From UHGV virus genome UHGV-0090257: a DNA stretch of 36,853 bases; one strand, given 5' to 3'. Each line of letters opens with the position of its first letter. The stretch's first letter is position 1. Position numbers and translations under genes: made by a program. The stretch comes from a virus. The notes under the pieces were generated by a model. The model ran no database searches. It was not told where the DNA came from and saw only the letters and a program-made list of their open reading frames with translations. This document shows, in pieces, positions 22,380 through 27,877 of this stretch.

Positions 22380-22966
22380 GCGATCACCATTTTGCATGGT
22401 TTAATCGCCATGCCGGGAGCCAGTTCAAAATCGGAGTCGCACTGATTTCCCCACATATCCCACCCGGTCACTTTGTCGCGGCTAAATAACTCACAGCGCG
22501 GCACGTCGCCAAGCAACTTAGCTAACATGTCTCTTACGATCGGTGGTTTTGCACTGTGCTCCATTCTCGGTGCGGTAAAGTGCTGGCATATTGAAGCGTC
22601 CATTCTCTCAGGCAACCGCCCTCGAACGGCAAACAAGCAATCCTCGCTATTTGCCCGGGTCATATGCCCCATTCCGATCGCACTGTTGCCTTTGTGCTTA
22701 TTGGTTTTGTGCCAAGTAAAGCCTTTCATAGTCATCAACCTGAATCCCCACGCCTCAATTACCTTTAGCGCTTCGGCTGGCTGTGTCGGCACCCACCACA
22801 TCGCTAACAAGCAAGATTCTGGATCCGCTAAATCCCATACTGGCAGTCGGCAAATGTCCTGAACATTCATAACATCGTATTTATGTCCAGCACCGCGATT
22901 GCCATCGTTGGCTTTGTCGCGATATTGCCAAGGTGGATCTGCGTAAATAAGTCGGTATTTGTTCAT
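22376..22966 (-). CDS. DNA N6-adenine methyltransferase, MT-A70-like
   Basis: 196 aa; catalytic DPPW motif in [10 protein letters not shown]; occupies the slot of ninC between ninB and the NinD-like ORF. Confidence 0.75.
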
Positions 22967-23406
22967 GCAGCTTTATCTCCCCATCTCGCTTTCCACTCCA
23001 GAGCCAGTCGCGCTTCGTCTGACCATTTAACGCCACGTTCTGTACCGAATGCCTGTATAAGCTCTAATAACTCCGCAAATTCGCTTACACGCATCCTGCT
23101 GGTTGACTGGCCTATTACCACAAAGCCATTCCCGGCAAGGTTAGGAACAACGTCCTGCTGCTTTAATGCTGCGGTAAACACACACTTCCAGCTTTCTGCA
23201 TCCAGCCAGCGACCATGCCATTCAACCTGACGAGAGACGTCACCAAGGCAAGCCCAAAGCTTTCGGTTTTGGTCTAAGCTGCGGTTGCGTTCCTGAATGG
23301 TTACTACGATTGGTTTGGTTGGGTCTGGAAGAATTTGCTGGATAGCTTGAATGGCGTTCTGCTGATGGATGGGGCTTCTTAGTTCAAACGTTAGTTTCCT
23401 CACCAT
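22963..23406 (-). CDS. ninB: NinB (recombination mediator)
   Basis: 147 aa, ...KLTFELRSPIHQQNAIQAIQQILPDPTKPIVVTIQERNRSLDQNRKLWACLGDVSRQVEWHGRWLD... near-matches lambda NinB as remembered. Confidence 0.9.
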   Translation of the reverse strand: MVRKLTFELRSPIHQQNAIQAIQQILPDPTKPIVVTIQERNRSLDQNRKLWACLGDVSRQVEWHGRWLDAESWKCVFTAALKQQDVVPNLAGNGFVVIGQSTSRMRVSEFAELLELIQAFGTERGVKWSDEARLALEWKARWGDKAA

Positions 23407-24409: not shown

Positions 24410-24700
24410 TCATTGCCTTACCTCCATAAGCGCCCTATTAATAAACGCCGTCATTGGATTTGCACACCCCCACCCCGTACCATCTGGATTTCTTTTAATT
24501 GGCTCCTTCTTCACTTTGCGTTTTGCATAAATAACCGTCTTCCACTTACGCTCAACAACACTCAAATGTCCTTGTTTCACCATATGCCTTGCTGCTTGAG
24601 CGATTCTGTTATTTGGTATTCCGGTGATCAGTGCTAATTCATGTGGGGAGAATTGTTCATGAGTTTTCAGATATTCCAAGATGATTTCTTTTCCAGTCAC
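24410..24700 (-). CDS. Small helix-turn-helix DNA-binding protein
   Basis: 96 aa; SPHELALITGIPNNRIAQAARHMVKQGHL resembles a winged-helix/HTH recognition region. Confidence 0.5.
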   Translation of the reverse strand: MTGKEIILEYLKTHEQFSPHELALITGIPNNRIAQAARHMVKQGHLSVVERKWKTVIYAKRKVKKEPIKRNPDGTGWGCANPMTAFINRALMEVRQ

Positions 24701-25590
24701 GATCTGCTCCTGTAACTATCCCATGTAAACGCAAGAGTGCACCCGCCGCCATCATTCATCCTGTCAATAACACGCTCACCAATGAATGCCGAAAGTTCAT
24801 CTTTGCTCTGATTACTAATCAGGATTGTTGGCTTCATGTATTCATATCTGGTGTTGATAATTTCGAACATGATTAGCTTTTCAGCATCACTGCCGAACTG
24901 CACGCCAACCTCATCGATTATTAACAAGTCAGGATGCGTAAATTGCCTAATGACTTCTTCTTCAGTTCTGGTTGCAGCCTTAGACCATGTTGATTTGTAC
25001 TCTCTGGCAATTTTCAAAGCAGTGGTAAATATCACAGAGCTTTGATGCTCGATAATGGCGTGCCTAGCGATAGCCAGTGCAAGGTGGTTCTTTCCAGTTC
25101 CAGGCTTACCACACATGACCAGTCCGCCACCTTTCTGAAGGCGTTCAGGCCACTTACTGGCATATGCCTGGCATACCTTAAGAACTCGCTTTGCATCATC
25201 ATTAACAGGCTCATAATTCTGAAGAGTGCAATATTTGAACCTCTCTGGAATATTGAGAGAATTCAACAAGTATTCAATTTTTGATTGTCTTGCTCTTTGT
25301 TCTGCCTGCTCACATTCAATCTCTTTCTTACGAATTTTCTCCTCAAGGCACTGTGGGCACTCAGATTTACTTGAAGTAATTCTTTTTCCTGAGATGGTCA
25401 GATATTTCTCATAGGAAGTATATTTACCGTGTTTCTCGCACTCTTCCACTGTGCTGGTAACTGACATTCCATCTGATGCTGATCCAATTTTGCTAAACTC
25501 AAGTTTCTGTTTAAGATCAGAAATGTCATTGATTTTTGAGTCTACAAGTTGCCTTTGCAGTGCCAGATTGTAACCATTTGTCGTATTCAT
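24697..25590 (-). CDS. DnaC-like replicative helicase loader (AAA+ ATPase) with N-terminal Cys-containing extension
   Basis: Walker A CGKPGTGKNHLA and Walker B LLIIDEVG; probable start at the Met of MNTTNGY overlapping the O stop; N-terminal region has CPQC. Confidence 0.8.
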   Translation of the reverse strand: MNTTNGYNLALQRQLVDSKINDISDLKQKLEFSKIGSASDGMSVTSTVEECEKHGKYTSYEKYLTISGKRITSSKSECPQCLEEKIRKKEIECEQAEQRARQSKIEYLLNSLNIPERFKYCTLQNYEPVNDDAKRVLKVCQAYASKWPERLQKGGGLVMCGKPGTGKNHLALAIARHAIIEHQSSVIFTTALKIAREYKSTWSKAATRTEEEVIRQFTHPDLLIIDEVGVQFGSDAEKLIMFEIINTRYEYMKPTILISNQSKDELSAFIGERVIDRMNDGGGCTLAFTWDSYRSRS

Positions 25591-25592
25591 AT

Positions 25593-26438
25593 TCACTCCT
25601 GCGCCCATGAAGGCATTTCAGTTTGTCCGTAATCTTTGGCGGCAAAGTTTTCCTGCATAGCTCGATGCTGCGGCCTCGGTTGAGATTTCCCCTTTGGAGT
25701 CTTGGGCTCAAAAATCCCCTGCCAACCACTGGCGATGCTCTGGTTTATAATTTCTTCAGGTGTATATCCCTTCTCCAGACTTCTGCTTAGAACGTTGATA
25801 GCCTGAGTGACACTTTGCTTAGACTTGATCGACTTACCTATCTCCTTGCGATAGGTAACCCACGACAACCATGTTTCTGCAGATAACCAATCAGGCAACT
25901 CTGTTTCTAGCGGGTCGAACTTCTGAGAAACTTTTTTGGGGGATATAGGGGGTTTATTAATATTTTCTTTTGTCTTTAAAGAATGTCTTTTGTGTGTCTC
26001 TAACTTCGAGACATTGAGTGTCTCTAATTTGGAGACATTTTTTGTCTCTAACTTCGAGACAAAGTTGCTAACTTGGAGACACTTGCTGAATAGCCACGCA
26101 GATACCTCCCTGTTTACACCGATTTGATTTCCATCCATAAACAGGCAATTCATTGAAATCAGTTCTTTTTTAGCCTTGTTAACATTCTGCCTTGACAGTC
26201 CTGTTAACTGAGCAATTTGCTCATCGGCTATTCGATCTGTTTTCTTATTGAATCCATATGTTTTCCTGACGTAGGCCAGCATAACTTTCAACTGGCGAGC
26301 GGTTAAATCGGCACTTGCGATAGCTTCCAGCAGCTCGTTAGCGAATCTGGTGTAACCATCATCGATATCAGCCACTCTTCGCTCCTGTTCGGCAAAGTTA
26401 CCTCTGCCGAAGTTGAGTATTTTTGCTGTATTTGTCAT
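25593..26438 (-). CDS. O: Replication initiator, lambda O-like, containing the origin
   Basis: 281 aa; N-terminus MTNTAKILNFGRGNFAEQERRVADIDDGYTRF... closely resembles lambda O as remembered; the middle of the gene carries iterons. Confidence 0.85.
   Translation of the reverse strand: MTNTAKILNFGRGNFAEQERRVADIDDGYTRFANELLEAIASADLTARQLKVMLAYVRKTYGFNKKTDRIADEQIAQLTGLSRQNVNKAKKELISMNCLFMDGNQIGVNREVSAWLFSKCLQVSNFVSKLETKNVSKLETLNVSKLETHKRHSLKTKENINKPPISPKKVSQKFDPLETELPDWLSAETWLSWVTYRKEIGKSIKSKQSVTQAINVLSRSLEKGYTPEEIINQSIASGWQGIFEPKTPKGKSQPRPQHRAMQENFAAKDYGQTEMPSWAQE
25995..26081. repeat. Origin iterons (4 copies of an ~19-bp dyad-symmetric repeat) inside the O-like gene
   Basis: TGTCTCTAACTTCGAGACA at 25995 and 26043, TGTCTCTAATTTGGAGACA at 26019, and a degenerate copy at 26063; followed on the O-sense side by an AT-rich tract at 25925..25985. 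Confidence 0.75.
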
Positions 26439-26472
26439 AATGACTCCTGTGGATTGATCCAGTCTTTCTACA

Positions 26473-26751
26473 TCAGGCCTCGAAGAATTCGCCGTTCTTC
26501 GGGGCTTTTTCTTTTGTCAGCATTCTTGCTACTTTCTTAGCCAGTTCCGCCAACTCCTCGTCTTCAACACCCCATTCAAGAACAGCCAGAAGCATTCCCA
26601 TTTTTGGGATGAAGCTGTCTTTCCATCGCGAAATTTGCGATTCATTAATCCCTAACGCGTCGGCAACCTTTCGCTGACCACGTACAGCAATTCGATTCAG
26701 GATGTTGCTTGTAATTGCATTCGCTTTCTTGCGAGTACTTGTAAGTTCCAT
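26473..26751 (-). CDS. cII: CII-like lysogeny establishment activator
   Basis: From the internal Met: ...GINESQISRWKDSFIPKMGMLLAVLEWGV... aligns with the lambda CII core (VDKSQISRWKRDWIPKFSMLLAVLEWGV); SD AAGGAAAT upstream; the longer six-frame ORF overlaps nutR. Confidence 0.85.
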   Translation of the reverse strand: MELTSTRKKANAITSNILNRIAVRGQRKVADALGINESQISRWKDSFIPKMGMLLAVLEWGVEDEELAELAKKVARMLTKEKAPKNGEFFEA

Positions 26752-26783
26752 ATGTAAGTATTTCCTTAACAAATAAGAAGTTA

Positions 26784-26801
26784 TGCGCATCAACTTATGC
26801 G
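26784..26801 (-). terminator. Hairpin between nutR and cII (tR1 position)
   Basis: Perfect GCGCAT-aagttg-ATGCGC stem; the downstream sequence is only partly U-rich. Confidence 0.35.
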
Positions 26802-26807
26802 CGTTGT

Positions 26808-26853
26808 ATTCCCGCATTTCGGCGGGAATGAGGACCATGACTGTTAAAGAGCG
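26808..26853 (-). promoter_or_regulatory. nutR (boxA plus boxB)
   Basis: Minus-strand sense boxA CGCTCTTTAACAG and boxB hairpin TTCCCGC-CGAAAT-GCGGGAA, between cro and cII. Confidence 0.7.
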
Positions 26854-26859
26854 GTGTTA

Positions 26860-27054
26860 CTATTTGTTTTTCTTGTTGCTTGGGAAAGGACGAACTTCCT
26901 CTCCAATCACACTGCCATCAGGCTTTACCGTAACCATGATGTTACGGCCTGCCAGAATGGCCTTGCTGATAGCGCACTGGATTACACCAAAGTCACTGGC
27001 TGCTTTAGCCTGTCCATGGATTTTGGCGTAATCGGCAAGTGTCATTCGAATCAT
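26860..27054 (-). CDS. cro: Cro repressor
   Basis: About 64 aa from the ATG at 27054; ...[35 protein letters not shown]...[16 protein letters not shown] aligns with lambda Cro; SD GGAGA upstream. Confidence 0.85.
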
Positions 27055-27083
27055 ATGCACTCTCCGTTATTAACCATGAACAA

Positions 27084-27160: not shown

Positions 27161-27877
27161 ATGGAAAATAAAAAATCACTGACGACAGAACAGCTCGAAG
27201 ACGCTAAGCGGCTTAAGGCTTTGTATGAGTCAAAAAAGAAAGAATTGGGAATAACCCAATACTCAATCGCTGATGAACTGGGTATCACCCAAGGAGCGGT
27301 AGGGCATTATCTTAATGGCAGAAACGCGCTAAACGTTGAGGTTGCATCTGGTTTTGCACGACTGTTGCAAGTCTCAATTGCTGATTTTAGCCAGTCAATT
27401 GCTGCCAAGGTTGCAGAACAGGCAGAAAGCCTTAAGAGCGATGCCAACGTAAGGTATGCAGGGGAATACAGAGCAGGAAAGAGGTATCCGGTGTTAAGCA
27501 GTATCCAGGCTGGCTCGTGGTGTGAAGCATGCGAACCATACACCATTAAAGACATAGATGTTTGGCTTGAGTCTGACGCGCATATTCAAGGTAATGCGTT
27601 CTGGCTTAAAGTGGAAGGTGATTCAATGACGGCACCGGTTGGGTTAAGCATTCCAGAGGGAACATTCGTTCTTTTCGATACCGGAAGGGAGGCGATCAAC
27701 GGCAGCTTGGTCATAGCAAAACTTTCTGACTCTAACGAAGCAACATTCAAGAAGCTGATAATCGACGGCGGAAATAAATACCTCAAGGGACTTAATCCTG
27801 CATGGCCTCTCGTGCCAATCAATGGAAACTGCAAGATTATAGGCGTTGCAATTGAGACAAAACTAAGGCTGGTTTGA
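27161..27877 (+). CDS. cI: CI-type prophage repressor (HTH plus S24 LexA-like autopeptidase domain)
   Basis: 238 aa; N-terminal HTH (ITQYSIADELGITQGAVGHYLNG), A-G cleavage site in QAGSW, catalytic Ser in GDSM and Lys in FKKL. Confidence 0.9.
   Translation: MENKKSLTTEQLEDAKRLKALYESKKKELGITQYSIADELGITQGAVGHYLNGRNALNVEVASGFARLLQVSIADFSQSIAAKVAEQAESLKSDANVRYAGEYRAGKRYPVLSSIQAGSWCEACEPYTIKDIDVWLESDAHIQGNAFWLKVEGDSMTAPVGLSIPEGTFVLFDTGREAINGSLVIAKLSDSNEATFKKLIIDGGNKYLKGLNPAWPLVPINGNCKIIGVAIETKLRLV

Follow-up and report, generated by a model that had tools for sequence, protein, structure and literature searches.

The window analyzed here, which is the whole 36,853-nucleotide stretch of the virus genome UHGV-0090257, carries on its minus strand an open reading frame (ORF) for an O-type replication initiator of 281 amino acids (25593–26438) and, overlapping its end by 16 nt, a gene for a DnaC-like AAA+ helicase loader of 303 amino acids (24697–25608). 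The segment at 25938–26081, which lies inside the O gene and comprises palindromic iterons, an AT-rich region, and a C-rich motif, is very probably the replication origin of a lambdoid prophage, with the build of ori-lambda and a place in a different specificity group. The O protein matches Pfam Phage_rep_O (PF04492) over residues 21–115 (E = 4e-36; 123.8 bits versus a cut-off of 28.7), TIGR01610 phage_O_Nterm (108.9 bits versus a cut-off of 45.5), and PHROG 678, "replication initiation O-like" (E = 2e-83). The protein recorded as "replication protein [Escherichia coli]" (P0001) is identical to it, 100% identical copies occur on 20 contigs, and a homologue search with O returned only sequences that are 88–100% identical.

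The iterons are four 19-bp units that directly follow the region encoding the N-terminal Phage_rep_O domain, with spacings of 24, 24, and 20 bp in plus-strand order. Iteron 1, the first in the direction of O (26063–26081; AGTTGCTAACTTGGAGACA), is degenerate, with a single good arm and three mismatches to the pattern, and this half-degenerate state is kept in nearly all relatives. Iterons 2 (26043–26061; TGTCTCTAACTTCGAGACA), 3 (26019–26037; TGTCTCTAATTTGGAGACA), and 4 (25995–26013; TGTCTCTAACTTCGAGACA) are full palindromes of the form TGTCTC-N7-GAGACA, the last of which adjoins the AT-rich region. A degenerate iteron pattern allowing up to three mismatches finds 7 matches, with palindromes counted on each strand, versus 0.08 expected, and none of 100 shuffled sequences reaches 7, which bears out the claim of an earlier note, made on reading this DNA, that four iterons with spacings of about 24, 24, and 20 bp are embedded in O (25995–26081). 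An iteron array of this class consists of at least three phased inverted repeats of ~18–20 bp inside the O gene, right after the N-domain, and four such units are present. In the O frame the array encodes CLQVSN followed by three copies of VSKLET, the KLET-like peptide repeat that the earlier note had recognized.

The AT-rich region (approximately 25953–25994) has a GC content of 25–27% in 40-nt windows versus ~45% in its flanks and is probably the DNA unwinding element. It is opened, right after the last iteron, by the junction motif CACAAAAGACA (in summary form, ACACAAAAGACA), which is kept in every O-family locus examined, including lambda, P22, and phi80-neighbour types. On its other side the region is bordered by the C-rich motif CCCCCTATATCCCCC (25938–25952, minus strand), which could be either a limit of the unwinding or a site of loading. 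A motif of this C-rich type is found in every ori whose O is without a lambda-type C-domain (ACCCCCTTACCCCC in P22 and CCCCTATATCCCCAGAGGGGA in DnaB-paired types), whereas lambda-type C-domains are accompanied by a palindrome, TTCGTCnGAGAATTCTGnCGAA, instead. The locus thus has the AT-rich region distal to the last iteron and the loader gene directly downstream in the early-right operon that characterize a lambdoid intragenic origin.

The number of iterons is variable. Natural variants of the same O gene have 2, 5, 6, or 8 copies, encoding O proteins of 265, 289, 297, and 313 amino acids, respectively; 2, 4, and 5 copies were seen in IMG/VR loci (L014 and L006/L016/L018 among the variants), and 6 and 8 copies in the proteins P0065 and P0002. 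The array grows in in-frame steps of 24 or 48 bp, and a lambda-type contig (L071) has 8 iterons. This plasticity parallels the difference between lambda, which has four iterons, and Stx phages, which have six (PMC7466680). Two further observations concern the array. The palindrome together with a T-run scores as a terminator-like site (26016–26040), and a plus-strand ORF of 63 amino acids that is antisense to O (25936–26127) encodes VSNFET repeats; this ORF mirrors the palindromic iterons, and we dismissed it as almost certainly not a gene.

Comparison with the annotated origin of lambda (NC_001416, iterons at 39034–39118) reveals the same construction. In both phages the origin lies inside O, directly after homologous N-domains; residues 1–117 of the window's O, its origin-binding domain (26088–26438, minus strand), are 58% identical to residues 1–117 of lambda O, and this alignment upholds the earlier proposal that the first ~100 residues are lambda-like. 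Both have four palindromic iterons of ~19 bp, with spacings in the O direction of 20, 24, and 24 bp here and 20, 24, and 23 bp in lambda; an identical CACAAAAGACA junction follows iteron 4 and is in turn followed by an AT-rich stretch; and the operon context, cro-cII-(oop)-O-loader-ren-nin, is shared. The two origins differ in the iteron arms, which are GTCTC/GAGAC in the window and TCCCTC/GAGGGA in lambda, whose iterons are of the annotated ATCCCTCAAAACGAGGGA type, a difference that the earlier note had pointed out. They also differ to the right of the AT-rich region, where the window has CCCCCTATATCCCCC and lambda has the palindrome TTCGTCAGAGAATTCTGGCGAA. Beyond residue 117 the window's O has no similarity to lambda O, its C-domain being unrelated, and in place of P it is paired with a DnaC-like AAA+ ATPase.

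The part of the O N-domain that would read the iterons can be tentatively assigned by residue invariance and by weak but consistent winged-helix alignments (CRP family, E = 0.08; 2d1h, MarR-like, and RIO2 winged helix-turn-helix, E = 0.09–0.6). Residues ~70–104 are predicted to form a helix-turn-helix with residues 82–93 as the recognition helix; the segment spanning residues 80–95, GLSRQNVNKAKKELIS, is encoded at 26154–26201 (minus strand). Beyond these weak matches, neither sequence nor profile searches with O found a solved structure. Among 39 distinct N-domains from loci with GTCTC-type iterons, the segment G80-L-S-R-Q-N-V-N-K-A-K-K91 has S82, R83, Q84, N85, V86, K88, and K91 invariant and G80 in 38 of 39. 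Eight distinct lambda-type N-domains have the segment K-L-P-V-K-R-C-N-E-A-K-L (KLPVKRCNEAKL), from which the window segment, GLSRQNVNKAKK, differs at 8 of 12 positions. In both its arms and its recognition segment, the window therefore lies outside the ori specificity group of lambda, 21, and the 933W/Stx type.

The iteron type follows this segment. Our sample consisted of 80 IMG/VR loci with relatives of the O N-domain and nine reference phage loci. GTCTC iterons are present in all 59 IMG/VR and phage loci that encode SRQNVNKAKK, and TCCCTC iterons are present in all 23 loci that encode the lambda segment, none of which has GTCTC iterons. An independent test on DNA alone, in which one genome per bacterial species was scanned for two phased GTCTC iterons, matched 13 species of Enterobacterales, including members of Pantoea, Erwinia, Tatumella, Providencia, Proteus, Morganella, Xenorhabdus, Arsenophonus, and Dryocola, and in 13/13 of these genomes the iterons lie inside an O gene that encodes SRQNVNKAK(K/N). 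The covariation is thus without exception in 82 related phage loci (59 + 23) and 13 bacterial genomes. The O N-domain of the window is 59–98% identical to those of all GTCTC-type relatives, and the 13-species set includes N-domains that are only 59–60% identical to it, as distant as that of lambda; it is the helix motif that tracks the iterons, and overall N-domain similarity does not. The window's repeats differ from lambda's, probably because the predicted DNA-reading helix of the initiator differs. The earlier note had presented iteron recognition specificity as a question raised by this module. That the iteron type is not lambda's is correct; the question itself was overstated, because the predicted helix differs from that of lambda and covaries with the iteron arms without exception, and because the matching of type-specific iterons to type-specific O N-domains is an established rule for the O family (PMC8022706).

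At the corresponding place in the gene, each of several other O types carries a distinct set of short palindromic iterons, followed by a shared ACACAAAAGA(C/A)A junction: P22 (gene 18/12; TTTACCGAATCGGTAAA, arms TTACCG..), phi80 (gp15/gp14; TTCCCGAAAACGGGAA, annotated as gp15 sites, arms TTCCCG..), HK97-like phages (Stx2-1717; TTAGCCAAGTCGGCTAA, arms TTAGC..), PhiR12_1 (TGTCACCAAAACGGTGACA, arms GTCAC..), and Klebsiella phage RCIP0098 (TTACCCGAATCAGGTAA, arms TTACCC..). Their O proteins are partnered by a DnaB-type helicase in P22 and the HK97-like phages, by P in phi80 and PhiR12, and by a DnaC-like loader in the Klebsiella phage. The nearest neighbour of the window type is PhiR12_1 (L086, 2800–2960), in which the arms, GTCAC/GTGAC, are one base off and the helix is RLPRQKVNKAKN (RQKVNKAKN). 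The O protein of Arsenophonus (L097), with CLSRQNVNKAKN, keeps GTCTC arms, and therefore positions 80 and 91 tolerate change. Comparison of these two proteins leaves the substitutions S82/P and N85/K as candidate specificity determinants.

Constraint on the iterons is visible at the level of DNA. Among GTCTC-type loci no variation occurs in the arms, whereas the iteron spacer and the intervals that separate the iterons drift, and 15 different hexapeptides are encoded as a result. We examined codon use in iteron instances that were picked by their non-synonymous positions alone, which avoids circularity. The Val codon, which is fourfold degenerate, is GTC in 31 of 31 distinct iterons against a background of 23% in the same genes, and the Glu codon is GAG in all 31 against a background of 49%, whereas the Ser wobble position in the iteron spacer is free to vary (T in 20, C in 7, and G in 4). 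With the synonymous positions of the arms frozen and the wobble position of the spacer variable, it is the DNA palindrome, not the VSKLET peptide, that is under selection. Because this contrast between arm and spacer is taken within the same sequences, it does not depend on the independence of the sample.

The loader belongs to the DnaC-like AAA+ proteins and has matches to Pfam IstB_IS21 (PF01695; E = 4e-18, 66.3 bits versus 24.1), to PHROG 50, "DnaC-like helicase loader" (E = 1e-84), and to the structure of E. coli DnaC (6qel; residues 42–239, E = 2e-32). It is 33% identical to MG1655 DnaC over DnaC residues 39–239, with Walker A (GKPGTGKNH) and Walker B (DLLIIDE) motifs visible in the alignment, and it would bind and load DnaB. 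The protein is no cellular DnaC equivalog, scoring 161.7 bits against the cut-off of 357 for the NCBIfam DnaC equivalog NF005931 in an alignment that begins at residue 93. Alignment with E. coli DnaC and IstB-type loaders takes in the AAA+ domain and the linker helix before it, beginning at residue ~97–100, and the first ~99 residues have no DnaC counterpart; where E. coli DnaC has a DnaB-binding N-terminus of ~41 residues, the phage protein has ~99 residues with a C-x2-H...C-x2-C cluster. The earlier description of the gene downstream of O, as one for a DnaC-like loader with a Cys-containing N-terminal extension rather than for lambda P, is therefore accurate; the 99% identical loaders of loci L001 and L002 likewise match only the DnaC-like reference and not lambda P (E ≤ 1e-3).

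The Cys/His cluster of the extension, C57-x2-H60...C84-x2-C87 (25348–25440, minus strand), is invariant in 29 distinct homologues in a region that is otherwise only 27–40% identical, and it is probably a zinc site. No Pfam or NCBIfam family matches the N-terminal region, for which a profile search found no solved structure (best E = 0.45, to unrelated proteins). By analogy with DnaI, a zinc-binding, helicase-contacting role is a reasonable guess for this region; the match of the loader to DnaI is itself confined to the AAA+ part.

Lambdoid phages have long been known to exchange cassettes, of N-domain plus iterons on the one hand and of C-domain plus loader on the other, and the window type takes part in this exchange. 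At least four types of C-domain are found behind GTCTC-type N-domains, and the genes that follow GTCTC-type O genes encode DnaC-like (284–303 amino acids), lambda-P-like (224–253 amino acids), or DnaB-like (448–470 amino acids) proteins; the characterization of the module as a mosaic in the earlier note holds, in that the combinations of N-domain, C-domain, and loader vary among relatives. Klebsiella phage RCIP0098 shares the O C-domain core and the loader of the window behind a different N-domain and different iterons. The point of exchange is the conserved junction together with the AT-rich segment. The C-domain core itself (residues ~177–262; 25653–25910, minus strand) is covered by PHROG 18589, which spans residues 148–280, and has no Pfam or NCBIfam match even at E = 10. 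A DnaT-like C-domain, to which the PHROG label "primosomal protein" and the order dnaT-dnaC in E. coli pointed, was rejected at this sensitivity (BLASTP against MG1655 DnaT, E = 19; no family matches).

C-domain clusters and loader clusters correspond nearly one-to-one. The five exceptions, which combine a window-like core with a P-like loader, resolve when only the last ~20 residues of O are considered. The tail is (E)(N/S/R)FxxKDYGxT(E/D/Q)xPxWAxx in each of the 39 O proteins whose gene precedes a DnaC-like gene, and WNxxExWxxFI or TDWIYGV in each of the 31 whose gene precedes a P-like one; conversely, loci L025 and L028 have a different C-domain core and yet a DnaC-type tail (further loci of note for this association are L038, L046, L048, L052, and L054). 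In the window the tail is ENFAAKDYGQTEMPSWAQE (residues 263–281; 25596–25652, minus strand), a candidate loader-docking peptide. Conservation is 0.85 in the tail, 0.71 in the linker that precedes it, and 0.49 in the head of the loader that follows it.

These observations can be tentatively drawn together in a scheme in which O is a three-part adaptor. The N-domain helix, and residues 82 and 85 especially, would set the palindrome, with GTCTC and GTCAC recognition differing by one or two residues, and the portable tail ENFxxKDYGxTExPxWAxE, rather than the whole C-domain, would pick the loader, docking on the zinc-binding C-x2-H...C-x2-C N-domain that is peculiar to phage DnaC-like loaders. We regard this scheme as possible and somewhat doubtful as a whole. 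If it is true, the natural mosaics collected here would be a ready-made swap table for the orthogonal engineering of initiators, origins, and loaders.

The same associations bear on the role of the loader. The origin might be correctly identified and the phage DnaC-like protein nonetheless not serve it, either because O recruits the host DnaC-DnaB complex directly or because the phage protein mainly hijacks or sequesters DnaB for host takeover. The AAA+ part of the phage protein shares 33% identity with host DnaC, which could therefore in principle take its place, and the DnaB-binding N-terminus of E. coli DnaC is not conserved in the phage protein. Such a division of labor is unlikely, as the 16-nt overlap couples translation of the loader gene to that of O, the DnaC-like loader always co-occurs with the ENFxxKDYG tail (39/39), and replacement of the loader by a P-like or DnaB-like gene is accompanied by a change of the O tail, as expected of a cognate pair and in parallel with lambda O and P.

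The module of the window is present in phages that form plaques. The DNA of O and the loader is 98.9% identical to that of mEpX1 and CurroJimenez_Bas106 and 94% identical to that of N7, and for the ori segment the identity is 99.4% with mEpX1 and Bas106 and 98.9% with N7. The structural genes of these three phages differ from those of the window, and the N-domain of Bas106 is an 88% identical variant, with helix and iterons unchanged. The earlier note had named absence of the repeats from functional relatives as the outcome that would speak against it; the repeats are present in all of them, mEpX1, N7, and Bas106 included. The module is annotated in mEpX1 (NC_019709) as gp46, "replication protein," and gp47, "DnaC-like helicase loader," and in Bas106 as "O-like replisome organizer" and "DnaC-like helicase loader"; none of the records of mEpX1, N7, and Bas106 marks the iterons. 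The same ori type occurs in phages of Hafnia, Morganella, and Proteus, and the full module occurs in 31 of 5,426 complete E. coli genomes.

This kinship also bears on whether the copy in the window is functional. The window is a prophage-like mosaic, and its module could be a decaying remnant with relic iterons that no longer fire. We consider decay quite improbable, because the ORFs of O, the loader, cII (26473–26838, minus strand), cro (26860–27060, minus strand), and cI (27161–27877, plus strand) are intact without exception and match their families over the full length, viable phages carry a module of 98.9% identity, and the O protein is 100% identical to the copies on 20 contigs. Least credible of all is the notion that the repeats are a tandem peptide repeat, a VSKLET linker kept for the sake of the protein with no role as DNA sites: although they lie in frame, encode a regular hexapeptide, and change in copy number without loss of the reading frame, the units are DNA inverted repeats, which a peptide repeat does not need, the synonymous positions of their arms are invariant while the peptide takes 15 forms, in position, phasing, and AT-rich neighbour they follow lambda's origin, which was defined by experiment, and their arm sequence covaries with the DNA-binding helix and not with the linker.

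We therefore return to the reading of the segment as an intragenic lambdoid origin, for which the following sequence of events can be proposed. The O protein would be made from the gene that itself contains the origin, and O dimers would use their winged-helix N-domains (recognition helix ~82–91, SRQNVNKAKK) to bind the four palindromic GTCTC-N7-GAGAC iterons in their phased array. The resulting nucleoprotein complex would then destabilize the adjoining AT-rich stretch. The C-terminal part of O, probably its last ~19 residues, would recruit the phage DnaC-like AAA+ loader carrying host DnaB, and the loader would place the helicase onto the opened DNA. Direct support exists for the anatomy of the locus, for the families to which its proteins belong, for the exceptionless covariation between iteron arms and helix, for constraint on the arms at the level of DNA, and for the link between tail type and loader type; by analogy with lambda, iteron binding, unwinding, and DnaB recruitment via the tail and the Cys/His N-domain would follow.

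Several points weigh against this reading. The loci are kin by descent and the arrays have undergone internal duplication, so the covariation and codon counts overstate their statistical weight. The assignment of the recognition helix is based on weak alignments (E = 0.08–0.6), and a single-sequence AlphaFold model of full-length O was unusable (mean pLDDT of 44.9). The island of conservation at the tail is only moderate, and the tail both abuts and overlaps the loader gene; physical linkage alone could give the match of tail and loader, and tail-mediated docking is therefore kept as a hypothesis. No binding or replication experiment on the GTCTC iteron type was found in the searchable literature.

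Around the module, the early-right operon of the window follows the lambda order, with cI divergent from cro-cII-O-loader-ren-like-nin. The gene after the loader (24410–24700, minus strand) matches PHROG "MarR family transcription regulator" (E = 6e-40) and also "Ren-like exclusion protein" (E = 4e-13), and in public records it is annotated as either MarR-type or Ren-like; NinB (22963–23406, minus strand), assigned by family match, is among the nin genes. Opposite the 3' end of cII lies an oop-like antisense RNA unit (26413–26517, plus strand) with a promoter-like site (TTGAGT-17-CATAAT with TG; 26413–26441) that is nearly identical to the oop promoter region of lambda and a terminator with a 14-bp stem (26475–26507) followed by a T-run; Rfam gave no family for this unit. 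The Rfam scan likewise found no family within the replication module, and its sole match in the window is the int-alpA RNA (RF02996; 16617–16679, minus strand; 45.1 bits versus a gathering score of 35.8). At 1400–24400 the structural and injection genes are 96–97% identical to those of P22-like podoviruses of the HK620/Sf6 type. The window is a clear inter-morphotype mosaic of podovirus-like structural genes and the replication module of the siphovirus mEpX1.

Our literature search found no paper that describes GTCTC-type iterons or the replication of mEpX1, and no biochemical study of the recruitment of DnaC-like versus P-type loaders by O-type initiators. Records of several phages already contain the module with its genes annotated, and its iteron type is a further case of a long-known lambdoid feature. 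As a discovery it thus carries little weight, and its value is the modest one of a clean natural dataset, in which one invariant 12-residue segment pairs with one palindrome over more than 70 loci and several genera, the near-cognate PhiR12_1 with its GTCAC arms narrows the candidate specificity determinants to residues 82 and 85, and the last 19 residues of O track the type of loader. In this capacity the dataset bears on the specificity of initiators for their origins and on how O-type initiators may recruit DnaC-like as opposed to P-type loaders.

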